NCBI RefSeq assembly: GCF_056746865.1
Contig: NZ_JBWKMP010000003.1
Length of the DNA: 64,000 bases
Source: a plasmid
Strand: one strand, 5' to 3'
This document shows positions 6,846 through 40,202 of this stretch, one piece after another. Position 1 is the first letter of the stretch. Each line of letters starts with the position of its first letter. The translations under genes and the position numbers were made by a program. The notes under the pieces were generated by a model. The model was not told the DNA's origin, ran no database searches, and was given only the letters and a program-made list of their open reading frames with translations.

Positions 6846-6859
6846 GTAGAGGAAAGGCT

Positions 6860-7510: not shown

Positions 7511-7516
7511 TTTAAC

Positions 7517-8323: not shown

Positions 8324-9410
8324 AAACATCACCGAATTACCAGAGTGGAGAGAGCTGGTAAGCAAATATAGCCATGACTGGGCATTAGCAGCAGAAGAGT
8401 TGATGGGTGTTAAGTTAACCCACCAGCAAAAGCTAATTGTTGAGGCGATTCAACAAAAAGGTTCAGCAGTCAGCGTCACCACTCCTGAAGGGATAGGCCA
8501 AAAGACGGTTATCGCTATAATTAGTATTCTTTATACAATCCTGATGCCTGAGTCTAAAACGGTTATTGTTTCCCCAAAGTTCTATAATTGTCGCAGGCAA
8601 GTTATCCAATACATAAGTACGTATTGGGATAGAGTCAGTAACAGAATCCCATTGCTGGGAGAATATTTTAAAGTCGACGGAAACGGCATCAATCATCGTT
8701 ACCGGGAATATTGGGGCTGCGAAATTAAGCCATATCACCGAAATTATGAGGAAGGTTTCGGTGGATATTATGCTGAACATCTTTTAATCATTGTTACGGA
8801 GGCGGCTCTTGCTGGCGATCGGCTATTCAGCATGTTAAGAGCATCGTTAGTAAGTGACGATTCACGTATACTTTTAATGTCCGCTCCTTCAGAGGAGGAG
8901 CATGGACACTTTTACGATTCCCATCATGGTCGTGCAAAATCAGAAGAAAATCCATGTGGTATTTATACAGCCATCAAGCTGAACGCAGAAGATACCCCCA
9001 TTATTTCACAAGGTTATCTTGATAACATTGCAGAAATATATGGTGGTAAAAACAGCGATTACTACCGTCGCATGATTCTTGGTGAGTTTCCAGGTATTAG
9101 GGAGGCTGTTCTTGAATCAGATATGCCGAAAACAATGCGCTTTTCGATGCCTGATGGTAGTGAATGGATAATGCCATTACGAGTGATAGCCCGGCATCAT
9201 GCACAGCACCACGCCAAAAAACATGGCGTTACAACATTGGAGTGGTTGAAATCGCACACCATTCCACTCTTCACTGCAGATCACAATGCTATCGTTGAGT
9301 GGGCAAAAACAATTCCGTGGGAGAATGTCGCTGAATACGCCCACATGCTAAAACCGCCGAAAGACAGGCAAGAAATTAGCTGGCTGACAGCAGAAAAAAT
9401 CATTGAGTGA
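8304..9410 (+). CDS. terminase-large-subunit ATPase-domain paralog with degenerate Walker motifs
   Basis: Clear similarity to the 1460-2968 ATPase domain (THQQKLIVEAIQ.. vs SHQQQQIIQSVQ..; FYDSHHGRAKSEENP vs FYESHHSRAKAEGNP), but Walker A reads TTPEGIGQKT and Walker B IVTEAA; no nuclease-domain counterpart. Confidence 0.6.
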   Translation: MLMLTPKNITELPEWRELVSKYSHDWALAAEELMGVKLTHQQKLIVEAIQQKGSAVSVTTPEGIGQKTVIAIISILYTILMPESKTVIVSPKFYNCRRQVIQYISTYWDRVSNRIPLLGEYFKVDGNGINHRYREYWGCEIKPYHRNYEEGFGGYYAEHLLIIVTEAALAGDRLFSMLRASLVSDDSRILLMSAPSEEEHGHFYDSHHGRAKSEENPCGIYTAIKLNAEDTPIISQGYLDNIAEIYGGKNSDYYRRMILGEFPGIREAVLESDMPKTMRFSMPDGSEWIMPLRVIARHHAQHHAKKHGVTTLEWLKSHTIPLFTADHNAIVEWAKTIPWENVAEYAHMLKPPKDRQEISWLTAEKIIE

Positions 9411-9416
9411 TAGTAG

Positions 9417-9447
9417 GAAGCCCGCCTGGTTGAGCGGGCTTCTTTTC
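9417..9447 (+). terminator. intrinsic terminator after the rightward dut operon
   Basis: GAAGCCCGC-ctggttga-GCGGGCTTC hairpin followed by TTTTC. Confidence 0.5.
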
Positions 9448-9826
9448 AAATATTGGAACCATATAGTTCACGTAGTTTATCCGCTACTGAAGATACGGGG
9501 ATTTCACCAGTTGCAGCCCCCACCGCAAGTTCCACCAGCACGGGAGAATCATATACCTGTATACCGTTACGGCGTAGAAATAGCAGCGCACTGTTTAGCG
9601 CGGTACGCTTATTGGCATCATTGAATATATGCCCTCTCGCTGTAGCCACCAGGTAGGTGGCGGAGACTTCGAAAAGGTCGGTGATCTCTTCGTAGGCAAC
9701 TCTGGCCTGAACTCTCCCGATAATGGCCTCTGCCCTGCCCGGATCTGACATGCCAGGCAGGCCGCCGTAGCGGCTTATATTCGCATCATGAAGCGCAATA
9801 AGTTCTTCCGGTGATATATGCCTCAT
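9446..9826 (-). CDS. doc: Doc toxin (Fic/Doc family kinase)
   Basis: 126 aa; Fic motif HIFNDANKR; close match to P1 Doc as recalled; overlaps the phd stop. Confidence 0.9.
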
Positions 9827-10047
9827 TATCGGTTAACCAGTTCCTTGTTGGTGGAGTCCAGGGTGTCAAACAGGGATGCAAATTCAGCATCCAGCGCCGC
9901 TTTTTTGTAGGCTTCGAAAGTAGCCTTGCTGACAATTACTGCTGGCTCACGGCCTCTGCGGGTGATTTCAACCTCTTCCCCGGCTTCAACATTGTTGAGC
10001 ACTTCAGAAAGGTTGCCACGCGCGGTACGGAAGTTAATGGATTGCAT
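9826..10047 (-). CDS. phd: Phd antitoxin
   Basis: [32 protein letters not shown]...; start taken at the second ATG of the track ORF. Confidence 0.85.
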
Positions 10048-10119
10048 AAACACCTCGTGTACTCGTTATGTGTACACAATTATAAACTTCACAGGCATAA
10101 AGCACCAGCACTTTGCAGC

Positions 10120-10509
10120 TTAAATAACCGGACAATCATCAAATTCCCCACTTCGGGCATCATTGATGACATGAGTGATCACACCAAAAACAGCATTACT
10201 GCCCGTGTATCCATCGTCATCTACTGGTAACGCCTCTTTCTTCCCGGTGCTTAAGTCCTCCAGGTGCTGGCGCGGATACTTCCTGTATCTCTTTATGCGA
10301 TATTCACCCTCCATAGCGCACACAAGCAGAGAACCATCAACCGGAGTAAGCGAGGAATCAACCACCAGCAAAGCACCCTGCAATATTCCCTCACGGTGAT
10401 GGCTATCAGCTGCCCGCATGAAGTAGGTCGCTGAAGGATGTCTAATTATCTGCTGATCAAGAGAAATTCGGCTTTCAACATAATCCGCCGCAGGAGAAGG
10501 GAAGCCCAT
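10120..10509 (-). CDS. humD: UmuD'-like SOS mutagenesis protein HumD
   Basis: 129 aa; S24-peptidase/UmuD-like core (..RAADSH...LLVVDSS..RIKRY..); same neighbourhood as humD in P1. Confidence 0.75.
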   Translation of the reverse strand: MGFPSPAADYVESRISLDQQIIRHPSATYFMRAADSHHREGILQGALLVVDSSLTPVDGSLLVCAMEGEYRIKRYRKYPRQHLEDLSTGKKEALPVDDDGYTGSNAVFGVITHVINDARSGEFDDCPVI

Positions 10510-10632
10510 AGCGTTTTACCTCAATGATACTGTTTATTCATACAGTATACATTGAAAAGGCATAGTTTGTGAAAGCGGGGTTTGTAGGCGCGCCACGCTG
10601 GGGGCTAATCACATTTCTCCCCCATCTTGCCG

Positions 10633-10884
10633 TTATTTTTTTGGTGCATCCTCGTTCTGATACACCGGATCGCTCCCTTTTGGCAACTGGAGGCTTAACT
10701 GCCGATAGTGCCGTAACCGTTCCATGAAATAGGTGCGCAGATTCTCTGGTTGCTCGCGGGCTACCTGTTCAGCTATGACAGGTATGTTCAATCGCTCTTT
10801 GTACGCCACACCGCTGGCAGCCAGATCAACGTTAACCTTATCCCGTTCTTCCTGACTTTTAGCTGCAATATTCCAGTCGCTCAT
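10633..10884 (-). CDS. hot: DNA polymerase III theta-subunit homolog (Hot)
   Basis: [36 protein letters not shown] closely parallels the HolE theta sequence. Confidence 0.7.
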
Positions 10885-10886
10885 AT

Positions 10887-11153
10887 TTAAGGCTCACATT
10901 TCCAGATGGTATTCTGAACACCCGAACCGGGCGCAAGATTAGGGTTGGCGTTCGCGCTATGCTGATATACTGCTTTAGACTTCCCATATTGCTGACAGGC
11001 TTTATCTGCGGTTTTTTGCAGGCTATCCAGGCCATACCAACCATCTGACTGTATGCTTACCTTTTCACCGTCGTTGTATTGCACCATTGCACACCCAGAT
11101 ATAGCCAGTATCGCACCGACAATAACGCTTTTCCATAAAACTCTATGCAACAT
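10887..11153 (-). CDS. putative lipoprotein
   Basis: Signal peptide with lipobox (LAISGC); GAGGGGA Shine-Dalgarno; start at the ATG rather than the track's TTG. Confidence 0.45.
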
Positions 11154-11198
11154 ATACAAAAATCCCCTCTGTGAATTGAGGGGATTTTAGCATGGTGA

Positions 11199-11834
11199 TC
11201 AGATATCGGCCTTATTCGGAATTTTATCAGCCACCAGCGGCAATAAAGCCTTCGCCATTTCATGAACCAACATGGCATCAATGACGCCTAGCGTATGGCC
11301 CGGTTTAATGTTTAATGCCGCCTCAAGATGACTCCTTTCCAGGCCGCTTTTCTCGGCTTGTTTATGACGATCTGGTGTAATAACTTCGCCCAAAACGCGG
11401 CTAATTTTTTCTCGTAATTGCTGGGTGCCAGCACACTTGATCGCTGTATCGTGGAGACGGTTAACCAGTTCGCGATAAACATGCGGCTTAATGCGGATAC
11501 GTTCACCGGTGACGCCCTTTCCTGGCGCTGGCACCGAACTATCCGGATAGTTGCCAGCCTCGTAAGCTACCCGCAGCCAGTGCATGAATGTTTCAGTGGA
11601 CACACAACCACAGTCCACATCGATTTTTCCGCGTTGCTGTTCCAGCCACTGCTCAAAATTCAATCTACACGTATTACTTTCATGTTGCTCTTTTTGTCTC
11701 AAGGCCAGCATCTGCTGGGCTATTTCCAATACTTCATCTGCCGTATATCCAGCACCGTGACCATACATTTCGATACGGGAAATAATCTCTGATATACGCT
11801 CTTCAGTGATTCTGGTCATTTCTTTTTGCGCCAT
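11199..11834 (-). CDS. hypothetical protein
   Basis: 211 aa; C-terminal segment (HVYRELVNRLHD..GTQQLREK) is shared with the C-terminus of the DUF4406 protein at 23758-24369. Confidence 0.45.
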   Translation of the reverse strand: MAQKEMTRITEERISEIISRIEMYGHGAGYTADEVLEIAQQMLALRQKEQHESNTCRLNFEQWLEQQRGKIDVDCGCVSTETFMHWLRVAYEAGNYPDSSVPAPGKGVTGERIRIKPHVYRELVNRLHDTAIKCAGTQQLREKISRVLGEVITPDRHKQAEKSGLERSHLEAALNIKPGHTLGVIDAMLVHEMAKALLPLVADKIPNKADI

Positions 11835-12187
11835 TTCTTTTCACATTCCTTAGTCCATTTTTCAATGTTCATTTTGGCAATATCAGTCATTCCATCACCT
11901 AAGAAATACTTTTTCCGGTATGTCTTGCACTTAAACCACACTACAACAGCCACCAGCCAGAAAATAAAAGGCCATACAGCAATACCAACGACAGCCGCGA
12001 TAAAGCCCAATAGCCATAAATGAAGCTCTCCAACTTCTGTTTCCGGCAATATTCTTAAAGAATTAAACAGCAGGCTGAACGAATGGTCGTATGCATTGGC
12101 GGTATAAGACATGCAATCCATATAATTAAAGTCATAGCCTGCGGCTGCCGCCCATAATGGGCGGTCAAGAAAATGTTTTAGTGTCAT
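11816..12187 (-). CDS. putative membrane protein
   Basis: Two strongly hydrophobic segments (LWLLGFIAAVVGIAVWPFIFWLVAVVVWF); short overlap with the downstream gene. Confidence 0.4.
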   Translation of the reverse strand: MTLKHFLDRPLWAAAAGYDFNYMDCMSYTANAYDHSFSLLFNSLRILPETEVGELHLWLLGFIAAVVGIAVWPFIFWLVAVVVWFKCKTYRKKYFLGDGMTDIAKMNIEKWTKECEKKWRKKK

Positions 12188-12196
12188 TATATAAAT

Positions 12197-12490
12197 TTAA
12201 GGTTCAGACCAGTTATCTTCAATAGCAATGCTTAATCTTTGTAGCCATTCTGCTAATTTCAGCATTGCTTCTCTTTCGCTTAAACCACGAGGAAAATCAT
12301 CAAGCGAAATTGTTGGCTTGAATCCCCCGCAATTATCCATTTCAACTGTCAGATTTTGTTCCAGCACGGTATTTCTTACGCGGCTATTGTGCCGAAGCAA
12401 ATATACTGAGCGTGATTTATTGGTTTTGTGGTCTAGCTTATATTCGGTAAGTATCATCTGGCTTTTGCCATGATTATTACCTCTCCACAT
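12197..12490 (-). CDS. hypothetical protein
   Basis: Start at the internal ATG with GTGAGG Shine-Dalgarno; the upstream part of the track ORF is the alternate frame of a separate small ORF. Confidence 0.4.
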   Translation of the reverse strand: MWRGNNHGKSQMILTEYKLDHKTNKSRSVYLLRHNSRVRNTVLEQNLTVEMDNCGGFKPTISLDDFPRGLSEREAMLKLAEWLQRLSIAIEDNWSEP

Positions 12491-12497
12491 ACTTACC

Positions 12498-12620
12498 TCA
12501 CTTAATAAAACAACTCCATGCGTAGTTGATGATTTTTTCCCACGTAATATAAATCTGCACTCCGGCAGTAAAACCAAAGCCAACAATTGCTGAAAAAATC
12601 AAAACATTTACTTTTGACAT
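12498..12620 (-). CDS. small hydrophobic peptide (40 aa)
   Basis: MSKVNVLIFSAIVGFGFTAGVQIYITWEKIINYAWSCFIK; ORF found by eye, below the track's size cutoff. Confidence 0.25.
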   Translation of the reverse strand: MSKVNVLIFSAIVGFGFTAGVQIYITWEKIINYAWSCFIK

Positions 12621-12668
12621 TATAAATTTTCTCTCGGTGTCGTAGGTGATAGCACCATAATTGATAAT

Positions 12669-12902
12669 TTAGTGAGTTAGCAGTTCCATTTTTTTGATGA
12701 TTTCCGCATGAGCATCATCGTTATCAACACTTAGCTCGTTTAATGCTTCTCGCACTACATCAACTTCTTCAGGCTGAAAGAAGTCGTCGCGGTAATCACC
12801 AAATAGAACCGAAACCAGCCTGCCACCAGCAACATCAAGATTGGCGCTAACAGGTGGCTCTTTGCCATCCTCAAATTCGACTACAAAAGTTAATTTTCCC
12901 AT
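12669..12902 (-). CDS. hypothetical protein
   Basis: 77-aa acidic ORF in the operon frame chain. Confidence 0.4.
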   Translation of the reverse strand: MGKLTFVVEFEDGKEPPVSANLDVAGGRLVSVLFGDYRDDFFQPEEVDVVREALNELSVDNDDAHAEIIKKMELLTH

Positions 12903-12978
12903 CGTTACCCCCAGAAGATAAAAATAGCGGCAATCGCCATAGCTACGCCTACAATCGCAAATGCTTCAGGCCAGCTTA

Positions 12979-13239
12979 TTACCTCACCTCCAGTCTCCAT
13001 ACCGCCTGACCAATCCGGCTGGCATGGGTATCTTTGGATACTGTTCCATCTTTAGCCAGCTCCATAAGAATTTTGCGCAAATCTGCCGAACGCCATTCTT
13101 CATCAGGAAATTCCTTCTCCATTGCCAACCGCAGATTCCAGGTTGCTATCGTGAATGGATATTCCCCGCCGAGAGCTTTCTCTTGCAGGGCAGCACGGGA
13201 ACGTATCACCTGCAAAACCTTCTCTTTTACATCCATCAT
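12979..13239 (-). CDS. hypothetical protein
   Basis: Start at ATG with AGGAGG Shine-Dalgarno (MMDVKEKV..); overlaps the stop of the upstream gene. Confidence 0.35.
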   Translation of the reverse strand: MMDVKEKVLQVIRSRAALQEKALGGEYPFTIATWNLRLAMEKEFPDEEWRSADLRKILMELAKDGTVSKDTHASRIGQAVWRLEVR

Positions 13240-13934
13240 TTTGCCTCCTGCGGCGGTTCTGGTAGCGGCATCCAGTGTGATGGTATCCACGACGCACCAG
13301 GTATTACCCACCCATCATTAGCGTCAGGATGCCCCGGGATGTAAGTCGCCCATTTCATTCGCCAGTCACCTTTCCTGTCAAACTCCCTGGCAACAAGAAC
13401 GGCTGTTTTGGTATCCGGCATTCGCTCACTACAGCTTATCCAACTATCCGGAATTACCGGATAGTTGCCCGACAGCTTGTTCAACTTGTAAGTCTGGCTT
13501 ACAGGTTTGGCACCATGAAGCATGGCGTCGCTCCGCTCTATGCCATCCAGCGCGATTCGCAGTGCCTGAATTGTGGTAGAGCTATCGTTTGGGGCTATTC
13601 CATATCGCTCGAATACAGCTAAATGGTTGCGCATAATCTCAGGCGTAAGCTCTTTGTAAGCATAAGCAAGAGACTCTGATGCATTATCCGGCACAACCGA
13701 CGCAAGCGCGGCAGCATAAACAGGAATAACGTCCACTTGCTCTTTATTGCTTTCATCCGTTAAAGCCCAGAATAATTTCCCGGCCGGATGTTTGAAAATA
13801 TAAGCAATTGGTTCTGCTTCCAGCGATGCCAGAGCAATTTCATACGACCGTCGCTCAATATTGTCTCGCACGTCCAGGCTGCTGATACGCTCTTTGATTT
13901 CTTTAATCAGTTCTTTGTCGGTTAAAGTGGTCAT
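13236..13934 (-). CDS. DUF551-domain protein
   Basis: C-terminal segment (TAVLVAREFDRKGDW...WIPSHWMPLPEPP) matches the DUF551 signature as recalled. Confidence 0.5.
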   Translation of the reverse strand: MTTLTDKELIKEIKERISSLDVRDNIERRSYEIALASLEAEPIAYIFKHPAGKLFWALTDESNKEQVDVIPVYAAALASVVPDNASESLAYAYKELTPEIMRNHLAVFERYGIAPNDSSTTIQALRIALDGIERSDAMLHGAKPVSQTYKLNKLSGNYPVIPDSWISCSERMPDTKTAVLVAREFDRKGDWRMKWATYIPGHPDANDGWVIPGASWIPSHWMPLPEPPQEAK

Positions 13935-13944
13935 AAATTATGCC

Positions 13945-14181
13945 TCAGTTGTATCCGATTGGATTAACCGCAACAAGAACGCCATCCGCGAACAAATCTT
14001 TAATGAGGTGTTCGCTCGGCTCGCCTTTTTCGTACTCTTCAATAAGGTAAGTGTCTCCATCTTCATTGATATAAACAGGAAGGATGGAGCCGTTGATAAA
14101 GTAGGTTCCGTTGTTATCGAGGATTTTTGCCTCGGCGATTTGTTTTTTGGTAAAACGCTCTTCTTTTGTCAAAGTTGCCAT
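13945..14181 (-). CDS. hypothetical protein
   Basis: Start at the internal ATG (MATLTKEERF..). Confidence 0.35.
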   Translation of the reverse strand: MATLTKEERFTKKQIAEAKILDNNGTYFINGSILPVYINEDGDTYLIEEYEKGEPSEHLIKDLFADGVLVAVNPIGYN

Positions 14182-14182
14182 A

Positions 14183-14401
14183 TCAGCTTTCCTTATATGG
14201 GTTGATTTTGTTGTGCAATGTGTTGAACGACGCCCATACCACGTCGTTATACAATTCAATAACTGGCTCAATTATTTTCCCGATTCCCCATACCAGAATT
14301 AACGGGGATATCGGTATCATCAACACGATAAACAGAATGAGAAACAGAAATTCTGTTATTCGGCTTCTTTGCGGATATTCTTTTCTGAATAATGTTGGCA
14401 C
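14183..14401 (-). CDS. small membrane protein
   Basis: GTG start after AAGGAGAG; hydrophobic core ITEFLFLILFIVLMIPISPLILVWGIG. Confidence 0.35.
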   Translation of the reverse strand: MPTLFRKEYPQRSRITEFLFLILFIVLMIPISPLILVWGIGKIIEPVIELYNDVVWASFNTLHNKINPYKES

Positions 14402-14402
14402 A

Positions 14403-14624
14403 TCACTCTCCTTTGCCCGCAGCTTTCGCCTGCTCTTTAGCAAGTCGCTCCGCTTCTCTGAAATCCCAATCCACTCGATGTGCGATATCAATTGCAGAAC
14501 GCACGGTTCGTTCAATTAGCGTATCCAGGTTATCAATTGTCATTGCCATATCTGGATTTCGAGATAAAATCTCCGCCCTCTGAATCTGCCAGTTGTTACA
14601 GGTTTCAAGTAATGAGTTAGCCAT
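14403..14624 (-). CDS. hypothetical protein
   Basis: ATG preceded by AAGGAGA (MANSLLETCNNWQ..). Confidence 0.4.
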   Translation of the reverse strand: MANSLLETCNNWQIQRAEILSRNPDMAMTIDNLDTLIERTVRSAIDIAHRVDWDFREAERLAKEQAKAAGKGE

Positions 14625-14625
14625 A

Positions 14626-14814
14626 TCACTCTCCTTTAGTGCGCAAGTGGTTTTTCCAGCGGTTTTGCGCCGCGCTGGGCTTTTTGCAAAAACCACAATC
14701 CATCATCCCGTAATATTTCATCAACCCCATCCGTCGGTTGCTGAGTCTCACCCACTGCCAGACGCCAGGAGCGTTTCTACGAACTAACAGAATCTTTGCT
14801 TTACGGTTTTTCAT
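14626..14814 (-). CDS. small basic protein (MKNRKAK family, copy 1)
   Basis: 62 aa, Lys/Arg-rich, with CGFC; start overlaps the stop of copy 2 (ATGA). Confidence 0.4.
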   Translation of the reverse strand: MKNRKAKILLVRRNAPGVWQWVRLSNRRMGLMKYYGMMDCGFCKKPSAAQNRWKNHLRTKGE

Positions 14815-14987
14815 CTTACAGCGTACCCTTTCTTCCGCCTGTTCTGTGACGCAGTAGGCTTACGCTTTGCGGCAAAAGCCACCTGACCAAATGGATGGAG
14901 TACCGCTATCTTATGGTTGCTAATAACCAGCTCCACCACACGCACAGGTCGCTGTAAAAAAAGTCGTTTTGCCTTACGGTTTTTCAT
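14811..14987 (-). CDS. small basic protein (MKNRKAK family, copy 2)
   Basis: 58 aa (MKNRKAKRLFLQRPVRV..); AGGAGAG Shine-Dalgarno; found by eye, below the track cutoff. Confidence 0.35.
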   Translation of the reverse strand: MKNRKAKRLFLQRPVRVVELVISNHKIAVLHPFGQVAFAAKRKPTASQNRRKKGYAVR

Positions 14988-15079
14988 CGCTTTGCTCTCC
15001 TGCGTCTCTTTGCTGCTCGTCGTGCCGCTGCAATACCGGTATGGCGGCGCTTTGGTGCCGGGATGATGTTGTCAGCCAT
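14984..15079 (-). CDS. tiny Arg-rich ORF (31 aa)
   Basis: MADNIIPAPKRRHTGIAAARRAAKRRRRAKR; stop overlaps the next ATG; no clear Shine-Dalgarno. Confidence 0.2.
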   Translation of the reverse strand: MADNIIPAPKRRHTGIAAARRAAKRRRRAKR

Positions 15080-15159
15080 CAGGACATACGGCTTTGCAAT
15101 TAGCGCAGAAGCCCAAAAACGAGTCGGGTACGGTAACAAGCCGATACATGCCACACGCA

Positions 15160-15912
15160 TTACTCACCTCCTTTGATGCGAATGCCTGCGGCGCGGATTG
15201 CAGCGATGACTTCAGAAACTTTGTATGCCATTACCGTTTGGTAATCATCGTGAAAATCTGTTCGATGAAGCATGCTGCTACGTTCCGGGAGCGATATTTC
15301 CCGAGCATCCAGTTCCTTAACGCGTTCCTCCAGTTCGTAGACCCTGCATTGTTCTCTATCATCAATCAGATATACCCCAAGACATTCGCTTTCTACCCAA
15401 CCGCCAAAATCATGATCGTAACGCTCACATGAAAACTCACCGTCACCGTCCTTTGTTGGAATGGTGTAACTATCTAATGGGCCACCATATGTCGGCACAT
15501 TTCCCAATGTTGGATGCTCAATCCACATGAAAAATGCACGTCCGGTTATTGGGCAAATATCTGGCCGCCATTGGTTACGAACAGCCTTGGTTTCGGATAA
15601 TTCTTCAGCGTGTTGTTTTACTTCCTCAAGCTCAACTCTCAGCTTCCCTACCGTTAGCGCAATATCCTCGTTCTCCTGATCGCGGCGTTTTATGTATTGC
15701 TGGTTTCTTTCCCGTTCATCCAGCAGCGCCAGCACGGTTTCTGGTCCGGTCAGAAATTTGAAGGCGTTGAGCGCATCAATATCCACACCGTAATCTTTAA
15801 GTTCCTGTTCACTTAACAAATCATCATCAGCTGGCAACATTAACAGGCGTTCCATTGCTGGAATTGCACGTTCCGCCGCCTCACGCAGTGCCTGGTAATT
15901 AATTTCGCTCAC
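15160..15912 (-). CDS. Ea22-like family protein
   Basis: Contains [35 protein letters not shown] and the C-terminal [10 protein letters not shown] typical of Ea22-like prophage proteins; GTG start overlaps the upstream stop. Confidence 0.6.
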   Translation of the reverse strand: MSEINYQALREAAERAIPAMERLLMLPADDDLLSEQELKDYGVDIDALNAFKFLTGPETVLALLDERERNQQYIKRRDQENEDIALTVGKLRVELEEVKQHAEELSETKAVRNQWRPDICPITGRAFFMWIEHPTLGNVPTYGGPLDSYTIPTKDGDGEFSCERYDHDFGGWVESECLGVYLIDDREQCRVYELEERVKELDAREISLPERSSMLHRTDFHDDYQTVMAYKVSEVIAAIRAAGIRIKGGE

Positions 15913-16571
15913 TGGTTGCCTCCTTTGCGAAGCTGGGCAGCAAAGTCAACTAACCACTCAGTCATTTCAACCTTCCCTACCAGGTCGGAACCAGGGTGCA
16001 TACAGCAATCACTCTGCGCCGCTTTGAAATCCTTACACTCATATTCTTTGGCCACCAGATTTTTTGCAGCTTCTATAGCAGCATCCACCCCCTGCGCCCG
16101 CACTTCAGCCAGAAAAGCATCGGTAGCTGGAGTTTCGCTGTGGTGTAGGGCATCGTTGATAATCATTGCAGCAACACCAGCCTGCCCTGCATCCGTGACC
16201 GACACATGCTCAAGAGTTACGGCCATTGCGTGTTTCAGCCCAGCGTTCTCTGCCACCAGCGCAGCGATATTAGTCTCAAGCTCTGAAATTCGGCACGTGG
16301 CATCAATATTTGTGTCCTCCAAGCACTTAATTTCACCAAGCAGCTCCAGTGCAACCTTTGGGTTGAACGCGGCAACATGACGAGCGTTGTTCTCTGCATT
16401 TTTCTGTCCATCAAAGCCGGTCCATTTGATAACGTCTTCACATCGTTCATCACCGGGCGTGTGCACCGCATAAGTACCAGTATCCGTCGAAATAAATGCG
16501 ACCCATTCGTCTGGTGTTGCCTTTTCTGCCGCCTCACGCAGTACCTGATAGTCAATTGTCATTCTCGCCAT
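15909..16571 (-). CDS. accessory protein, [13 protein letters not shown] / QLRKGGNQ paralog family
   Basis: Shares the TDAFLAE(V/I)RA motif and C-terminal QLRKGGNQ with 21036-21803, 22951-23454 and 17200-17439. Confidence 0.5.
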   Translation of the reverse strand: MARMTIDYQVLREAAEKATPDEWVAFISTDTGTYAVHTPGDERCEDVIKWTGFDGQKNAENNARHVAAFNPKVALELLGEIKCLEDTNIDATCRISELETNIAALVAENAGLKHAMAVTLEHVSVTDAGQAGVAAMIINDALHHSETPATDAFLAEVRAQGVDAAIEAAKNLVAKEYECKDFKAAQSDCCMHPGSDLVGKVEMTEWLVDFAAQLRKGGNQ

Positions 16572-17203
16572 CCTTCACAGTTGTAATCACTACAGCCTTC
16601 AAAATCATATGGGCTGTACTGCCAGGTTATTTTTCCGCAATGCGGACAATTCCAACGCACCTTCCCGCTTCGCGACTTCTTTCTTCTGTTCTGCTCTTTC
16701 AACCAGTCAGGCATGATCAAACCTGCGCCCTGAACCATTGTTCTGCGGTTAAAGTTATTGATATTGAACGTCCGGCGCTTTGCTGCATCAGCAATGGAAA
16801 ATGGCAACCAAACTATTCCTGGTTCGTTTTTGTTGGCGACGCTAAAGATGGTCGCTTTACTGAAGTCATCTGTTGGCAATCCACCGTGTTGAAGCCAGTA
16901 AACATCGTTGCCGTTCCAGCTACCTTTTTTGTAGGCCACATACGCAGTGCAATCTGACTCAATCAGGCTTTCTGTAGGGATGTACTGGCAATCAACGTGC
17001 CACACAGCCATTGCATCCACGCTATCAGCGCAAACAGGCTGATCGATATCTCGCCCACAATTCCAGGCTTTTTGGGCTTCTTCCAGCGTGTAAACATGAG
17101 CGCGATCGATATCAGAGCTATAACCATTGCCGTTATGGCAATGGAATGAGGCGTTATTACCCACAGTTTCACGCAAGCACATCATGTAAAAACGGTTACT
17201 CAC
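16559..17203 (-). CDS. zinc-ribbon protein
   Basis: GTG start overlapping the upstream stop after AAGGAGG; C-terminal CPHCG...CEGW zinc ribbon. Confidence 0.45.
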   Translation of the reverse strand: MSNRFYMMCLRETVGNNASFHCHNGNGYSSDIDRAHVYTLEEAQKAWNCGRDIDQPVCADSVDAMAVWHVDCQYIPTESLIESDCTAYVAYKKGSWNGNDVYWLQHGGLPTDDFSKATIFSVANKNEPGIVWLPFSIADAAKRRTFNINNFNRRTMVQGAGLIMPDWLKEQNRRKKSRSGKVRWNCPHCGKITWQYSPYDFEGCSDYNCEGWRE

Positions 17204-17439
17204 TGGTTGCCTCCTTGGCGGAGTTGCGCTGCGATGCATGAAAAAAAAGACTCCCGAGTGTGACAGTTAAGAGCTGGTGCGAACGCCGCGTTAAGAACGG
17301 CGGCATCACAGCCGTCATCAATATAGAGCGCAATTTTTTTCTCCAGGCGCGCTTTGGCTTCCTGCAACTGCATACCCCGGCACGCACGCGGGATATAATC
17401 AGCAATTTGAGCGATAGCTTTTTCGTTCTGTTTAAACAT
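17200..17439 (-). CDS. small protein with C-terminal AAQLRQGGNQ
   Basis: 79 aa; its conserved C-terminal codons double as the Shine-Dalgarno for the next gene. Confidence 0.45.
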   Translation of the reverse strand: MFKQNEKAIAQIADYIPRACRGMQLQEAKARLEKKIALYIDDGCDAAVLNAAFAPALNCHTRESFFSCIAAQLRQGGNQ

Positions 17440-17635
17440 GCTTCACCTCGATAGGCTTGATGGTGTCTAACAGCAGTCGGCGGCGCGTATTTTCTGCAAA
17501 ATGGCGGCGTCCAGTTTCTTTGTGGTAAAACTCGTTTTTGCCGACGACCCACATCCGCTCTGTTTGGTGCAGTTTTTTTACCTTCGGGCCATCTTTGGTG
17601 ATCACGGTACCGGTATGGGTTTTTACGATTGTCAT
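17432..17635 (-). CDS. hypothetical protein
   Basis: 67-aa basic ORF within the operon chain. Confidence 0.35.
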   Translation of the reverse strand: MTIVKTHTGTVITKDGPKVKKLHQTERMWVVGKNEFYHKETGRRHFAENTRRRLLLDTIKPIEVKHV

Positions 17636-17718
17636 GCCACTACCTATTCGAACAGATGAACGAGACAGGCCGATGCTCGTCCACCTGAAAAACTGACGAT
17701 TTGATGCATACTCACGGT

Positions 17719-18447
17719 TTATTCCTGAATGCGCTTAAACTCGATTACCCACACCCAGGGATTAGCGTTCCAGCTTTCTTCACCATAGATGGATTCCCAC
17801 AGGCGCTGGAACGCAACCTTGGCCATTGCGAAATCCCCCTTGGGAGTAAGGAATGTTCCCGGGTGATCAGGAAGCAAACTTCCAGCAGGCGGAACGCCCT
17901 CAGCCCTTGCATCGCATTCGCTGATATCGTTCAACCGTTCAACGCGCACGTTGGTAATTTCCAACAGAATGCGTGATGCCCATCGCGGCATGTGAATTGA
18001 TGGACGCCACCCACCATCAAACTTTTCATTCACAGTGTGAGGTTTCCAGTCGGCATCATCGGGTATCGACCATAAGCCGTAATCACCAGGTTTTTGCTCG
18101 CAACTGGCCCGATAAATCCTTGCTGCGTTCTTCTCATCGCCACGACAAAGGTTGTCGTTCCAGTCCACACTGCAACCATCCTCATTGCCTAATATCGCCC
18201 ATGTTTCACGAACCCAAATTCGATCGCCGACGATACCAAATGGGCAATTGAAAACACTGCTTACACCATCAGCCCCGTACCACTGAAAACCTGCACCAAT
18301 TTTTCTAACCATCACTGGTGCTTCTGGACCAACTTCCGCAGGCTGATTTTTCATTATCCGCCGCGTCTGCGTTTTCCTTCCTTCGAGGATGGCCCGGACC
18401 ATCTCATCGTTAAAAATCATCCCGCGTTCTTTCATTTTTTGATCCAC
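17719..18447 (-). CDS. ASCH-domain-like protein
   Basis: N-terminal FNDEMVRAILEGRKTQTRR and C-terminal WVWVIEFKRI resemble YqfB-type ASCH proteins. Confidence 0.45.
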   Translation of the reverse strand: MDQKMKERGMIFNDEMVRAILEGRKTQTRRIMKNQPAEVGPEAPVMVRKIGAGFQWYGADGVSSVFNCPFGIVGDRIWVRETWAILGNEDGCSVDWNDNLCRGDEKNAARIYRASCEQKPGDYGLWSIPDDADWKPHTVNEKFDGGWRPSIHMPRWASRILLEITNVRVERLNDISECDARAEGVPPAGSLLPDHPGTFLTPKGDFAMAKVAFQRLWESIYGEESWNANPWVWVIEFKRIQE

Positions 18448-25715: not shown

Positions 25716-25818
25716 GAAAACACACAGTTGCGCCCTGGCATTATCGTGGGGTATATTTCTACGGCACCTTAGAAAAACGGGTGCCGGGATTGGAACCCCG
25801 GATAATGTCAAAGGCGAC

Positions 25819-25846
25819 ACAGACGCCGAACGCGTCTTTTTTTGTG
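25819..25846 (+). terminator. hairpin with T-run between target site 1 and the c4-like RNA
   Basis: AGACGC-cgaac-GCGTCT followed by TTTTTTGTG; short stem. Confidence 0.35.
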
Positions 25847-25892
25847 TCATGCCATCGCACAGCCATACTTAGCGTTTAGCTCAGAGATCAAT

Positions 25893-25972
25893 GGTAGTGC
25901 TGGCTGGGCTGCCGAAAGGCAGGCCGGTTCCCTTTGACGCCGGTAGTTCCAACCCAGTCAGTGCTACCGCCA
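25893..25972 (+). ncRNA. c4-like antisense regulatory RNA (immI-type)
   Basis: About 80 nt; acceptor-like stem GGTAGTGC / GTGCTACC followed by G-CCA; internal GNRA hairpin CTGCC-gaaa-GGCAG; single-stranded CCCTTTGAC and GTTCCAACC complementary to sites at 25787-25814 and 25975-26020. Confidence 0.4.
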
Positions 25973-26028
25973 TTGAGATTGGAACCTCACGCGGTAGCTC
26001 CTTAACTTAGTCAAAGGAGGCTGCCAAT

Positions 26029-31395: not shown

Positions 31396-31776
31396 TCATA
31401 CACCAACCAGGCTTTCAAGAGGAATGCCAAACTGGGAATGTAAACGACGAATCATAGGTAACGTTAAATTTCGTGTTCCATTTAGCACTTCGTAAACACG
31501 ATTTGACTTACCAATCGCCGGTTCCAGATCCTTCACGGTCAGCCCTTGCTGTTCCATACGGAATTTAATGGCCTCAATAGGTGATGGTGGCTCAATTGGG
31601 TAATGTTTTTTCTCGTACTCCTCAATGAGAAGACACATGACCTCAAAGAAATCACCTTCCGGGGTGTTCATTTCCGGTTCGTTATCGAACATCGGTTCGA
31701 CCGCACGCAGTGCGGCCTCATAATCTTGTTCTGTACGGATAGGTTTAATGTTCATTAATTCCAAAGGAAAGCCCAC
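31396..31776 (-). CDS. HigA/YgjM-like HTH protein (extra antitoxin-like regulator)
   Basis: MNIKPIRTEQDYEAALRAVE.. N-domain plus C-terminal HTH (GKSNRVYEVLNGTRNLTL). Confidence 0.5.
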   Translation of the reverse strand: MGFPLELMNIKPIRTEQDYEAALRAVEPMFDNEPEMNTPEGDFFEVMCLLIEEYEKKHYPIEPPSPIEAIKFRMEQQGLTVKDLEPAIGKSNRVYEVLNGTRNLTLPMIRRLHSQFGIPLESLVGV

Positions 31777-31805
31777 TTGTTAAGTGGGCTTTTTGTATGT
31801 GTTTA
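31777..31805. terminator. bidirectional-looking hairpin
   Basis: AAAGCCCACTT-gtta-AAGTGGGCTTTTT. Confidence 0.35.
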
Positions 31806-31811
31806 ACTATA

Positions 31812-32150
31812 TCAGGCTGCTTTTTTATTCAGGTTCCGCTGAGAAATAAATTTTTCAGCAGTATTGATACGACTTAACTCTTCCTGAACGCGCATATCAT
31901 TTTCGACTTCCCACAGGTCTACTGCGGTCTGAAGATTAATCCAAAAATCTACAGAAGTATCGAATGCTTTTGCCAGGCGATATGCCATATCCATCGTTAG
32001 CTTACGATTGTTATTAACAAGAGCACTTACGGTGTTACGATGAACATGAAGTATTTCTGCTAACTCGTTGATCTTAAGCTCTAACGGCTCCAGGTATTCG
32101 TACAGCAGGATATCACCTACAGTCGTCGGTTTTCTGGTTGCCTGTTTCAT
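31812..32150 (-). CDS. higA: HigA antitoxin (HTH_XRE)
   Basis: TVGDILLYEYLEPLELKINELA...DFWINLQTAVDLWEVEN follows the HigA pattern; immediately downstream of higB. Confidence 0.7.
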   Translation of the reverse strand: MKQATRKPTTVGDILLYEYLEPLELKINELAEILHVHRNTVSALVNNNRKLTMDMAYRLAKAFDTSVDFWINLQTAVDLWEVENDMRVQEELSRINTAEKFISQRNLNKKAA

Positions 32151-32221
32151 TTTTTGCCCTTACTAGCGTGCGTATTAAGTGGACTCTGGTCAGTACCTGG
32201 CCCATCCGCCGGGTATTTGTT

Positions 32222-32524
32222 TTAGTATTTGTGAGGGTCGAGATACAAGTCCTCGGCCTTTCCGTTAACCCACTTAAAAATTAACCTGTATTGCTTATTC
32301 ACCCTTATTGATGAATAGCCGTTTAGCTTCCCTGACAATTCCTCATACCGATTACCTGGTGGTGATCTCAAGTCCTTCCAAGTAGTTGCAGCATTGATAA
32401 TATCCAGCTTCCGCAACAATGTAATCTGAATATCAGAAGGTATCTTTTTGTGTGGTATTGAAAATTCAAAAAAATCATCAAGCCACTCATCCCTGAAATT
32501 CTTTATGTTAATCTTTTTGCTCAT
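32222..32524 (-). CDS. higB: HigB toxin (RelE/ParE superfamily)
   Basis: 100 aa; C-terminal RVNKQYRLIFKWVNGKAEDLYLDPHKY matches the HigB pattern. Confidence 0.7.
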   Translation of the reverse strand: MSKKINIKNFRDEWLDDFFEFSIPHKKIPSDIQITLLRKLDIINAATTWKDLRSPPGNRYEELSGKLNGYSSIRVNKQYRLIFKWVNGKAEDLYLDPHKY

Positions 32525-36885: not shown

Positions 36886-37533
36886 GTGAGTCTTTGTGAT
36901 TATACAGGGAATATGGTTTCCCCCTGGCTGGAACACGGCATTGATGCAGTCATTGTCGATCCGCAACACCAGGAGTCCGGCAGCCAATTGATGGAGTCAG
37001 GTGCTGTACTCACACGTATCAGCGCAATTATTGACAGTGATGAGGTCTACAATTTCCTTCGGAAAAATTTGCACAGAGTTGTATTTTTAGCCGGTTTCCC
37101 TCCATGTACTGACCTGGCTGTATCTGGCGCACGCTGGTTCGCAGATAAAGCAAAAAAAGATCCGGTTTTCCAGTTCAAAGCAATGCAGGTTGTCTGGCAG
37201 TGTTACGACATTGCAAAGATGATTGGTTGCCCGTACATGATTGAAAACCCGGTCAGCCAAATATCGACATTCTGGCGTAAACCTGATCACATATTCCATC
37301 CTTATCACTTCACTGCATATTGCAAGGAAGACAATTACACCAAAAAAACATGCCTGTGGAGCGGACAAGGATTCATCATGCCAACTCCGCGAATCGACAA
37401 GTCGTTAGGTGATCCAGATAACCGAATACACAAGGCACCGCCAGGGCCTGAAAGAGCGAATTTTCGTAGCGCGACACCTTACGGTTTTGCAAGAGCTGTA
37501 TTTGAAGCAAATAAGGAGGGAATCCGTGGCTGA
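36886..37533 (+). CDS. DNA cytosine-5 methyltransferase-like protein (start uncertain)
   Basis: PC-type motif GFPPC and ENP(V) motif; GTG at 36886 chosen as the first start after the rdgC stop; overlaps the dam start by 8 nt. Confidence 0.45.
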   Translation: MSLCDYTGNMVSPWLEHGIDAVIVDPQHQESGSQLMESGAVLTRISAIIDSDEVYNFLRKNLHRVVFLAGFPPCTDLAVSGARWFADKAKKDPVFQFKAMQVVWQCYDIAKMIGCPYMIENPVSQISTFWRKPDHIFHPYHFTAYCKEDNYTKKTCLWSGQGFIMPTPRIDKSLGDPDNRIHKAPPGPERANFRSATPYGFARAVFEANKEGIRG

Positions 37534-38285
37534 TATTGGTGCTAAATTTATTTCTTATAGCGACAATCATCGTCCTGCGGCGGAAGCCACTATCAGCCAT
37601 ATGCGACGTATTCGCTCGGAGGACGAATTTGATCGCCCAGTCTTTAAGTGGGTCGGCGGCAAATTTTCTGCACTGCCCATTATCTTCGAACACCTGCCCC
37701 ACGGAAAACGGTTGATAGAACCTTTCGTTGGAGGTGGCGCTGTTTTCACTAATGCCGGATTTAAAAGCAACCTGCTGAACGATATCAATAATGACCTGAT
37801 TAACTTCTATCAGACATTGCAGCGTGAAGGGCATTCTCTTATCACACTGGCATATCGTTTTTTTCAGGATTACAACTCTGCTGATGCATTTTTGAATGTT
37901 CGCAATGCATTCAACAATGGTGCTTATGATTCCCTTCACCATGCAGCGGCGTTCCTGTATCTCAATCGTCATTGTTTTAATGGCGTCACTCGCTATAACC
38001 GTAAAGGAGAGTTCAACGTCGGATATGGAAAGCAGAAATCACCCCACTTCCCTCTCGCGGAAATGGAGGCGTTCCTGGCTGACGATATTTCAAAGTATTC
38101 GGAATTTGTGTCCGGCGATTTTGCTGGTGTAATTGAGGCTGCCGGGAATGATGATGTGATTTTCTGCGATCCCCCCTATGAACCATTGCCTGACACTACC
38201 GGATTTACAAATTACTCAGGGCATAGCTTTAGGTTTGAAGATCAACAACGGCTGGTGTCACTGCTGGTGGATGCTGGATTTGCCC

Positions 38286-39191
38286 CTATATTTCCAGACA
38301 CCTGTTATCACTTAACCCATTACTGGCCCGCTGCCGTAGATATTCCCGTGGCGAGCGATAACCCAGTGCACTATGCGGATGCCATTCGTTATAATGCTCG
38401 AACGCCTCTGCAAGGTTCTTTGCTGCCGTTAACCCGTCTGGTTTAGGCATGATACTGATGTAGTCACGCTTTATCGTTTTCACGAAGCTCTCTGCTATGC
38501 CGTTACTCTCCGGACTCCGCACCGCCGTGTTCTTCGGTTCAAGCCCCAACATCCGGGCAAACTGCCGTGTTTCATTAGCCCGGTAGCATGAACCATTATC
38601 CGTCAGCCACTCTACTGGAGACGCCGGAAGCTCGTTGCCGAAGCGGCGTTCCACCGCTCCCAGCATTACGTCCTGTACTGTTTCACTGTCGAAGCCGCCC
38701 GTAGTGACTGCCCAGTGCAGTGCCTCACGGTCACAGCAGTCCAGCGCGAACGTGACTCGCAGTTTTTCTCCGTTATCACAGCGGAACTCGAACCCGTCAG
38801 AGCACCATCGTTGATTGCTTTCTTTCACGGCCACTTTGCCAGTATGTGCCCGTTTCGATGGCGGTACAGCGGTTTTTCGCTCAAGCAACAGCGCATTCTG
38901 GCGCATGATCCGGTAAACACGTTTGGCATTGATCGCAGGCATACCATCAAGTTCGGCCTGTCTGCGAAGCAGCGCCCATACCCGACGATAACCATACGTG
39001 GGCAGCTCTCCGATAACATGGTGTATACGGAGAAGCACATCCGTATCATCTGAGTGACGGCTGCGGCGACCATCTTTCCAGTCATCGGTTCGTCTGAGAA
39101 TGACGTGCAACTGCGCACGCGACACCCGGAGACAACGGCTGACTAAGCTTACTCCCCATCCCCGGGCAATAAGGGCGCGTGCGCTATCCAC
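38286..39191 (-). CDS. insD: IS2 transposase InsD (orfB)
   Basis: 301 aa, very close to IS2 InsD as recalled ([38 protein letters not shown]..). Confidence 0.9.
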
Positions 39192-39514
39192 TTTTTTGCA
39201 CGCCCGTATTCAACGGCTTCTTTAAGGAGTTCATTTTCCATCGTTTTTTTGCCGAGCAGGCGCTGGAGTTCTTTAATCTGCTTCATGGCAGCAGCAAGTT
39301 CAGAGGCAGGAACGACCTGCTCTCCTGCGGCCACAGCAGTAAGACTTCCCTCCTGGTATTGCTTGCGCCAGAGAAATAACTGGCTGGCTGCCACACCGTG
39401 TTGCCGGGCAACAAGGGAGACCGTCATTCCCGGTTCAAAACTCTGCTGAACAATAGCGATCTTTTCCTGTGTAGTACGCCGTCTGCGTTTCTCCGGTCCT
39501 AAGACATCAATCAT
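39149..39514 (-). CDS. insC: IS2 InsC (orfA)
   Basis: [26 protein letters not shown]..; start at the internal ATG of the track ORF. Confidence 0.85.
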
Positions 39515-39780
39515 CTGCTCTCCAATGACTAGTCTAAAAACTAGTATTAAGACTATCACTTATTTAAGTGATATTGGTTGTCTGGAGATTCAGGGGGCCA
39601 GTCTAGATGCCCACAGACGCGGAGCGAAAATTGTGATAACAAACAGTGGTGCGCCTAACATTCGCGAACTTTACGTTGGCAATGGCTTCAAGGTGTATCC
39701 TATGCCATCCCGTCGCTCTGTATCCTGTAAAGCATCAACGCGAATGATAGCTAACGACATTATAGCCACACTTAATTAAG

Positions 39781-39808
39781 AAAAGCCCCATATGGGGCTT
39801 TTATAACA
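39781..39808 (+). terminator. intrinsic terminator after the dam 3' fragment
   Basis: AAAAGCCCCA-tat-GGGGCTTTT. Confidence 0.5.
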
Positions 39809-39836
39809 TCAAACAAGCACCGTTACGGTACACTAA

Positions 39837-39903
39837 CAACACCATTCTGGTACTAAAAAGGAATCAAAGTAGCCTCAAAATAACACATGGACCCAAAACG
39901 GTG
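39837..39903. repeat. repeat block flanking the ParA/ParG-like operon (left copy)
   Basis: CAACACCATTCTGGTACTAAAAAG and AGCCTCAAA..CAAAACGGTG recur at 40993-41055. Confidence 0.45.
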
Positions 39904-39914
39904 TCATTCCGGCG

Positions 39915-40202
39915 TCATTTTGTATCCTCAGACTCTGCAAGCATGAGGATAGCATGGCGGATCATATTCAATTTGCTGCGATTATGCTTTTTGCTTAACG
40001 CATCAAGTACCTGGTACTCGTATTCATTGAAGCCAACACGAATGGATTTAAAATCACGTGGGGCGTCCTTATCGAGCACTTTGTTGTCTTCTGGTTGCTC
40101 ACCCGGCACCAAATCAGCTTTGCTGGCAAAAGCCTCAATTCGGCGTTCAAGATCGAGGTCTTTTACTTCGGGGGCTTTTACCGATTTACGAGGCTTAATC
40201 AC
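39915..40202 (-). CDS. ParG-like small partition protein
   Basis: 95 aa, directly downstream of and overlapping the ParA-like ATPase gene. Confidence 0.45.
   Translation of the reverse strand: MIKPRKSVKAPEVKDLDLERRIEAFASKADLVPGEQPEDNKVLDKDAPRDFKSIRVGFNEYEYQVLDALSKKHNRSKLNMIRHAILMLAESEDTK

Follow-up and report, generated by a model that had tools for sequence, protein, structure and literature searches.

Cleavage of the phage P1 pac site needs Dam methylation, and P1 dmt becomes essential only where the host lacks Dam (PMC12707154, citing Sternberg & Coulby 1990). When dmt-A and dmt-B of P1 are knocked down by CRISPRi, the efficiency of plating on BW25113 is ~1.4; both are thus nonessential on this strain (PMC10695390). 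In P1, the mapped cleavage site is surrounded by 4+3 TGATCA/G hexamers, which are concentrated within the 5' third of pacA, and the Dam module lies within one large protein, Dmt. In phage D6, dam (orf63) follows rdgC and a small methylase-like gene; the D6 annotators liken the phage-plasmid Dam module to the C-terminal half of P1 dmt. Natural insertion sequences have a precedent in P1: wild-type P1 is said to carry IS1 and the sequenced strain is reportedly mod749::IS5. As in the locus described here, the latter would be an insertion sequence in a DNA-methylation gene of a plasmid prophage which did not destroy the phage; there IS5 reportedly lies in the Mod subunit of the type III system EcoP1I, whereas here IS2 lies in an orphan Dam.

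The stretch of plasmid DNA analysed here (64,000 nucleotides; the window) is a D6-like, P1-related phage-plasmid, i.e. a plasmid prophage of E. coli. It carries pacA and pacB, a C4 antisense RNA, and ParM/StbB and RepB modules. It is collinear with the 92.8-kb E. coli plasmid NZ_LR890273.1 in blocks of 99.3-99.9% identity, except for a mosaic stretch at ~8.3-18.3 kb; from rdgC to dam it shares the gene order of D6 at 74.6% nucleotide identity. As in D6, dam is the last gene of an operon composed of rdgC, a small methylase-like gene and dam. In contrast to D6 and to relatives such as NZ_LR890273.1, in which dam is uninterrupted, the window dam is split by a complete IS2. The features of the locus are as follows.

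36913-37533, plus strand: intact upstream methylase-like gene (D6 orf64, 'putative DNA-cytosine methylase'), in the same operon as dam
37526-38274, plus strand: dam 5' fragment, codons 1-249 and two bases of codon 250
38270-38274, no strand: left copy of the target-site duplication, GATGC
38275-39605, minus strand: IS2 (IS3 family), complete, 1331 bp, aligned without gaps to K-12 IS2A
38286-39191, minus strand: IS2 orfB (InsD-type transposase frame, 301 aa)
39149-39514, minus strand: IS2 orfA (InsC-type, 121 aa)
39606-39610, no strand: right copy of the target-site duplication, GATGC
39611-39779, plus strand: dam 3' fragment, codons 251-305 with the stop, preceded by the third base of codon 250, corresponding approximately to E. 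coli Dam residues 216-266
39781-39802, no strand: G+C-rich hairpin directly 3' of the dam stop

Both copies of GATGC can be read directly from the sequence. The empty site in NZ_LR890273.1, GTGGATGCCCACAG, contains GATGC only once; the duplication therefore arose through the insertion rather than by coincidence (chance 1/1024). Accordingly, the two flanking alignments of the window to NZ_LR890273.1 (ending at 38274 and starting at 39606) share 5 bp of the reference. The dam/IS2 junction reads ACTGCTGGTGGATGC / TGGATTTGCCCCTAT, and the ends of the element read TGGATTTGCCCC at its start (38275) and GGGGGCCAGTCTA at its end (39605). The initial annotation had recognised that an intact IS2, flanked by a 5-bp target duplication, interrupts a phage dam gene, and this holds; its start for IS2 is correct while its end (39604) is one base short, which makes the element 1331 bp rather than 1330 bp.

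Removal of 38275-39610 (1336 bp, i.e. IS2 plus one repeat copy) restores a single 305-aa open reading frame from the GTG at 37526 to the stop at 39779. Comparison with an uninterrupted homolog, which had been proposed as a check, gives a clear result: the restored protein is identical over 305/305 aa to WP_016262374.1, the Dam of NZ_LR890273.1. At the nucleotide level 916/918 positions are identical and both differences are synonymous; apart from these, IS2 is the sole difference between the two plasmids at the dam locus. The start codon is preceded by AAGGAGG and agrees with the annotated start of WP_016262374.1. The continuous frame had thus been anticipated correctly, but its length of about 308 aa had not, and the excision suggested at the time (38275-39609) leaves one extra C, which causes a frameshift and a 265-aa product. 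If 38275-39604 is taken out, the frame is 307 aa long and repeats Asp-Ala, which accounts for the earlier length; only the 1336-bp excision reproduces the intact allele.

IS2 is inserted in the orientation opposite to dam: IRR is the end at 38275 and IRL the one at 39605. Relative to K-12 IS2A (1331 bp), it has 56 substitutions (95.8% identity) and no indels, and both terminal sequences (imperfect inverted repeats) match without gaps. The orfA protein is identical to K-12 InsC1 and orfB differs from its K-12 counterpart by 10 substitutions. The two frames overlap and are both open, and the A6G -1 frameshift motif is kept (39191-39197, IS position 409). The element thus shares length, termini, orfA/orfB, the -1 site and a 5-bp target duplication with IS2 of E. 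coli, and is apparently complete and functional, as judged from its sequence. It is a sequence variant that is nearer to the copies of other strains than to K-12 IS2A; copies 99.6-99.7% identical to it are found in many plasmids and chromosomes. It is the only IS2 copy in the 64-kb window.

The occupied dam/IS2 junction is absent from PLSDB (72,556 plasmids), 5,426 complete RefSeq E. coli genomes, IMG/VR and the JGI metagenomes; the empty target site is found in four IMG/VR contigs. Among the databases searched, the insertion is private to the window sequence. Relative to WP_016262374.1, neither half of dam carries a further lesion. Together with the two synonymous differences and the absence of the junction elsewhere, this supports the earlier proposal that the insertion is recent.

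The restored protein belongs to the Dam family. It matches TIGR00571 with 231.6 bits (cut-off 114.85), residues 37-302 covering profile positions 2-265 of 267, and carries the AdoMet motif FxGxG (EPFVGGG, from residue 67) and the catalytic motif DPPY (215-218). Residues 36-302 align to residues 4-266 of the solved E. coli Dam (PDB 2G1P, 4RTJ; E 1.6e-51); the alignment runs from end to end and both motifs are shared, while a 35-residue N-terminal extension is present on the window Dam only. The score against the E. coli Dam equivalog model NF008152 is below its cut-off (220.9 vs 441). Among the residues which we take to be the DNA contacts of E. coli Dam, the alignment preserves K9, N120 and R124 and has F, V and G in place of Y119, L122 and P134. 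GATC specificity of the window Dam is inferred from its family membership. Unlike P1, in which the Dam module is fused, the window encodes Dam as a separate 305-aa gene, which matches positions 504-777 of the 779-position PHROG 116 profile. D6 orf63 is 79% identical to the restored Dam over 284 aligned codons. The full-length family match and the shared order of rdgC, small methylase-like gene and dam bear out the assignment of dam to the phage.

These data are best explained by transposition of a complete IS2 into a D6-like plasmid prophage, at codon 250 of its dam gene, with duplication of GATGC; we consider with high confidence that this is what occurred, that the methylase is very probably null and that the effect would be mild. 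The remaining product would consist of 250 Dam residues and 56 IS-coded residues, keeping the AdoMet motif and DPPY but lacking the C-terminal 55 residues. By analogy with P1, loss of the phage dam would be nearly silent in a Dam-positive E. coli host, where host Dam methylates the same GATC sites; since P1 dmt is dispensable on such hosts, a mild phenotype is expected here. The element would then rely on host Dam for GATC-dependent steps, including cleavage of its candidate pac site, and may be handicapped in dam-deficient hosts or where host Dam is limiting during lytic replication.

The candidate pac site lies at the 5' end of the window.

411-545, plus strand: candidate pac site inside pacA (96-1460), with five GATC at 411, 463, 491, 529 and 542

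Each of the five GATC is within a GGATCA/TGATCC hexamer, and together they span 135 bp. A second cluster (four GATC from 52415) was considered; in a window of 64 kb such a density is unremarkable. The initial annotation had proposed that packaging now depends on host Dam. This is plausible, given the analogy with P1 and the conserved five-GATC cluster in pacA. The alternative is that packaging is unaffected: the cluster would not be a methylation-gated pac site in D6-like phages, and the role of Dam would be a different one (shielding DNA from GATC-directed restriction, regulating replication or gene expression, or nothing measurable). We regard this as a serious possibility, though one that we judge somewhat less probable than its opposite. 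It is favoured by the differences from P1 pac in number (five vs seven), spacing and hexamer (GGATCA vs TGATCA/G), by the location of the five GATC in a coding region, and by the dispensability of P1 dmt on standard hosts; moreover, the P1 hexamers surround a mapped cleavage site, whereas the window site is a sequence-based candidate. Against it, the five GATC form invariant islands: all 20 of their 20 bases are identical to D6, compared with only 54% in the rest of 396-560, and PacA protein identity around the cluster is 35% compared with 74% overall. The cluster is retained by 25-26 of the 26 distinct pacA sequences and, within PacA, maps to the counterpart of the annotated P1 pac region; in P1 the hexamers likewise lie in the 5' third of the gene. 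This pattern argues for constraint on the GATC at the level of the DNA itself.

A further-reaching version of the packaging argument is that D6-like phage-plasmids gate pac by Dam methylation and that dam::IS2 throttles packaging as an early, possibly selected, step towards a plain plasmid. If pac is gated in this way, host Dam would run short during runaway replication and thereby throttle lytic packaging, and the dam::IS2 element would be on its way to a plain plasmid without viral spread. We consider this unlikely. Also improbable is that the knock-out was selected rather than neutral, through a benefit to the lysogen or plasmid state (avoided over-methylation or weakened lytic packaging) which would make it a step from phage-plasmid towards plain plasmid. 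The disrupted copy is indeed unusual: homologs of dam occur at 597 places in 596 related plasmids, so that at most one record could have dam in two pieces, and the gene is intact in nearly all of them. However, the insertion is a single private event, and the rest of the window (pacAB, tail and baseplate genes) is >99% collinear with an intact relative and shows no sign of decay. In comparison with D6, dam has a pN of 0.129 and a pS of 0.82 (saturated); by this sequence comparison purifying selection acts on the gene, which the D6-like family conserves, and the strength of that selection argues that its loss is usually disadvantageous or transient.

Our preferred reading is a recent loss of function with a mild expected effect. 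The 5' frame continues into IS2 and stops at 38446, giving a 306-aa hybrid of 250 Dam residues and 56 IS-coded residues. That this hybrid is still an active GATC methylase, so that nothing was lost, is very improbable, even though motif I (EPFVGGG) and motif IV (DPPY) lie upstream of the insertion and the length is similar to that of the native protein. The frame leaves Dam at residue 250 and the last 55 residues are cut off; these are matched throughout by the Dam profile and the solved E. coli Dam and are conserved with D6, while the tail encoded by the IS is unrelated sequence. The segment matching the lost residues provides the final strands of the central sheet in class-I methyltransferases; the phage GATC methylase is consequently very probably null. 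As found in the window, the gene lacks the complete catalytic domain of Dam (TIGR00571). The 3' fragment appears to lack both a recognisable ribosome-binding site and a promoter reading inward; an in-frame ATG inside IS2 ahead of it (39525) has no Shine-Dalgarno sequence. For annotation purposes, the two dam fragments make up a single pseudogene interrupted by IS2, and the open reading frame of 345 aa at 37409-38446 is not a new protein.

An assembly artefact (a collapsed or misplaced repeat) can hardly account for the IS2, since its exact ends, full length and perfect 5-bp duplication of a single-copy GATGC are not the outcome of a misassembly and both flanks are collinear with NZ_LR890273.1, despite the facts that most E. 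coli genomes carry several copies of IS2 (median four places per genome) and that the insertion is found nowhere else in the databases searched.

The earlier statement that the element lost its own adenine methyltransferase requires some adjustment. A Dam-type methylase is indeed split and its inactivity is inferred from the truncation, but 'adenine methyltransferase' is too broad. 'GATC methylase' or 'Dam-type methylase' is preferable because close relatives additionally encode, in a part of the element beyond the window, a DarB-like protein whose motifs are N6-adenine-methylase-like. The 64-kb window contains no second Dam paralog (tblastn), ~30 kb of the element being beyond it, and a motif scan of window open reading frames of at least 100 aa found no other [DNS]PP[YFW] motif.

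Insertion sequences are common in accessory genes of plasmid prophages, and a small phenotype is expected in Dam-positive E. coli. This is an ordinary mobile-element event in which element, gene and consequence are all known, and alone it answers no open question. It is, very probably, a natural knock-out of the phage's own Dam in a D6-like phage-plasmid that is otherwise intact. With NZ_LR890273.1 as a near-isogenic IS-free relative, the pair can be used to ask whether D6-type packaging is gated by GATC methylation.

The stop codon of the upstream methylase-like gene overlaps the dam GTG by 8 nt, and its longest open reading frame starts at 36727. The frame matches PHROG 757 'DNA methyltransferase' (E 3.8e-78) and has no match in Pfam or NCBIfam. 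In D6, glnS is located between dam and the parA-like gene; it is absent from the window element and from NZ_LR890273.1. A promoter and terminator scan around the dam locus gave nothing above shuffled expectation and missed the hairpin at 39781-39802, which was read from the sequence as AAAAGCCCC-ATAT-GGGGCTTTT. This hairpin resembles a bidirectional terminator separating dam from the parA-like operon, which is convergent with it; given the hairpin and the convergent operon that follow dam, no downstream gene would be affected by IS2.

The dam gene of this D6-like phage-plasmid (D6 is a P1-related phage) is interrupted by IS2. When 1336 bp are removed in silico (38275-39610, i.e. IS2 plus one GATGC), the flanks fuse into a single 305-aa ORF. 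The features of the locus are:

37526-39779, plus strand: restored dam, from GTG to stop, 305 aa, with AAGGAGG 6 nt 5' of the GTG
38270-38274 and 39606-39610: GATGC target duplication, directly outside both IS2 ends
38275-39605: IS2, 1331 bp, with ends TGGATTTGCCCC... and ...GGGGGCCAGTCTA
38286-39191, minus strand: IS2 OrfB, frame open, 10 substitutions in 301 residues relative to K-12
39149-39514, minus strand: IS2 OrfA, protein identical to K-12 IS2A OrfA
39781-39802: hairpin 3' of dam, followed by a convergent parA-like operon

The initial annotation had placed IS2 at 38275-39604, between two GATGC copies. Both copies and the left end are confirmed; the right end was one base short. The excision it proposed (38275-39609) leaves one C too many, and the resulting frameshift gives 265 aa. 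Removal of 38275-39604 alone gives 307 aa with Asp-Ala duplicated, probably the source of its "about 308 aa". The single ORF it expected is obtained with the corrected boundaries. The restored gene differs at two of 918 nt, both synonymous, from the gene for WP_016262374.1, annotated as a Dam family methyltransferase on NZ_LR890273.1 (E. coli MINF_7C plasmid 4); the proteins are identical. The empty site in that plasmid is GTGGATGCCCACAG, where GATGC is single.

The inserted element differs from K-12 IS2A (NC_000913.3 381260-382590) by 56 substitutions and no gaps (95.8% identity). It retains the A6G frameshift motif and looks functional from its sequence. Many IS2 copies on plasmids and chromosomes are 99.6-99.7% identical to it, so it is a common variant. 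The 64-kb window contains no second IS2 sequence.

By sequence comparison, the IS2 flanks are part of a D6-like plasmid prophage: the region from rdgC to dam is 74.6% identical to phage D6 with unchanged gene order, and several E. coli plasmids of ~90 kb are at least 99% identical to the flanks. Aligned to NZ_LR890273.1 by local BLAST, the whole window falls into collinear blocks at 99.3-99.9% identity, except for a mosaic at ~8.3-18.3 kb and a swap at ~31.8-32.6 kb. The blocks ending at 38274 and beginning at 39606 share exactly 5 bp of NZ_LR890273.1; the insertion is therefore clean, and its surroundings are not rearranged. Between dam and its parA-like operon, D6 carries a glutaminyl-tRNA synthetase (glnS) homolog (6581-8242 of the D6 record, compared with 39780-40200 of the window), which both the window element and NZ_LR890273.1 lack.

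The restored protein is, on profile and alignment grounds, a full-length Dam family member. It scores 231.6 bits against TIGR00571 (cut-off 114.85) over profile positions 2-265 of 267, and its residues 36-302 align to residues 4-266 of EcoDam, the E. coli Dam of solved structure (E 1.6e-51). IS2 interrupts codon 250 after its second base. Motif I (EPFVGGG, from residue 67) and DPPY (215-218) both lie 5' of the break, while the lost C-terminal segment of 55 residues corresponds to EcoDam ~216-266. Reading into IS2 yields a hybrid of 306 aa (250 Dam and 56 IS-coded residues). In the class-I methyltransferase fold, the segment after motif IV supplies further strands of the central sheet; as this is the segment lost, we infer that the hybrid is inactive. 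A mechanical ORF list also gives a 345-aa ORF (37409-38446, plus strand), which is the N-terminal part of Dam running into the IS2 end and could be mistaken for an intact gene by automatic annotation.

Translation of an 84-aa peptide carrying the Dam C-terminus is possible in principle from an in-frame ATG at 39525 within IS2; no Shine-Dalgarno sequence precedes this ATG, and the IS2 promoter is directed the opposite way. Other genes should escape polar effects, since dam is the final gene of its operon and is followed by the hairpin and the convergent operon.

Among the 72,556 plasmids of PLSDB and 5,426 complete RefSeq E. coli genomes, not one record spans IS2 together with its flanks. Exact-match searches of IMG/VR and the JGI metagenome contigs did not find the 30-nt left junction; the 30-nt empty site is present in four IMG/VR contigs. 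A dam homolog occurs at 597 places in 596 plasmids, which leaves room for no more than one record with dam in two pieces. Between the window clade and D6, pN for dam is 0.129 against a saturated pS of 0.82, which indicates strong purifying selection. Neither half of dam shows secondary lesions. Together, the absence of the junction from the searched collections, the retention of dam in the family and the unblemished halves mark a recent and private insertion into a gene normally kept, in agreement with the recent origin first proposed.

The statement that the element lost its own adenine methyltransferase is best narrowed to the GATC (Dam-type) enzyme. No further Dam-like sequence lies in the 64-kb window, and its ORFs of at least 100 aa carry no other [DNS]PP[YFW] motif. 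The enzyme may nevertheless not be the only adenine methylase: in the part of the element beyond the window, NZ_LR890273.1 (19990-26826) encodes a 2278-aa SNF2-related, DarB-like protein with EPSAGTG and GNVPFG near its N-terminus. These motifs point to a further N6-adenine methylase domain in the phage-plasmid family, of a class other than Dam, and the narrower wording is preferred because of this second candidate. Another methylase-like gene lies intact just upstream of dam; its coordinates and those of the two pac genes are:

96-1460: PacA
1460-2968: PacB (bases for both: PHROG 1711 'terminase', E 2e-167; 'DNA pacase A subunit' in the relative; pacA/pacB annotation in D6)
36913-37533: methylase-like gene (start as annotated in the relative; longest ORF from 36727)

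The methylase-like gene and dam share 8 nt, from the dam GTG to the stop of the first gene. PHROG 757 'DNA methyltransferase' and D6 orf64 'putative DNA-cytosine methylase' match this gene; no Pfam or NCBIfam model does. GFPPC and IENP, seen by eye, recall C5-methylase motifs IV and VI; a normal C5 enzyme would be longer than this protein.

Within the window, GATC sites cluster most densely in pacA, with five sites (411, 463, 491, 529 and 542), each within the hexamer GGATCA/TGATCC. Each is kept in 25 or all of 26 distinct pacA sequences, which form two ~75% identical clades. The window shares all 20 GATC bases in 396-560 with D6, against 54% of the remaining 145 bases; the encoded peptide is 35% identical, against 74% across PacA. 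Chance conservation of all 20 has a probability of ~5e-6, assuming independent per-base conservation at 0.545. These figures give good support to a DNA-level constraint on the GATC sites themselves, which stay invariant while the rest of this stretch of pacA evolves fast. The annotated P1 pac cleavage sites (pacA nucleotides 276-285) are flanked by four and three TGATCA/G hexamers, in the equivalent N-terminal region of PacA, which is poorly conserved. The GATC cluster in 396-560 is a strong pac candidate of P1-like type for D6-type phages.

P1 pac requires Dam methylation, and dmt is consequently essential only in Dam-negative hosts, according to a passage in PMC12707154 citing Sternberg & Coulby 1990. 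CRISPRi knock-down of P1 dmt-A and dmt-B left plating on BW25113 unchanged (efficiency of plating ~1.4; PMC10695390). By analogy with P1, it is plausible that packaging now depends on host Dam, as first suggested, and the effect in ordinary Dam-positive E. coli would be expected to be small. A throttling of packaging by the knock-out, as a step in the loss of the viral lifestyle, is unlikely; this reading has no positive support, as comparison with NZ_LR890273.1 reveals no decay in the remainder of the window.

The components are all known: IS2, the Dam of D6/P1-type phage-plasmids and the methylation-gated packaging logic of P1. Natural IS insertions reportedly occur in the P1 genome, including mod749::IS5 of the sequenced strain, a methylation gene interrupted by an IS. 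Novelty is limited to this one allele, which is absent from all collections searched. As a naturally occurring dam knock-out whose intact relative is near-isogenic, the allele is of modest practical use.

Across ~8300-18350, only short blocks match NZ_LR890273.1 (85-98% identity, one out of order); this is the variable accessory-gene region of the element. Three small ORFs at 31396-32524 (minus strand) encode HigB-like (100 aa), HigA-like (112 aa) and further HTH (126 aa) proteins. The first two equal the D6 toxin-antitoxin pair in size; the third has its 94% homolog in the antitoxin partner encoded by NZ_LR890273.1, and the HigB of that plasmid is replaced in the window. The arrangement looks like a toxin-antitoxin module swap leaving an orphan antitoxin. 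No tRNA genes were found across the whole window. Two RNA features were identified with Rfam:

25764-25842, plus strand: isrK, 61 bits
25887-25974, plus strand: C4 antisense RNA, 77 bits

The stretch 25764-25974 is a P1/P7-type immI immunity region; in NZ_LR890273.1, Icd-like and Rha/Ant-like genes adjoin the immI-type region.
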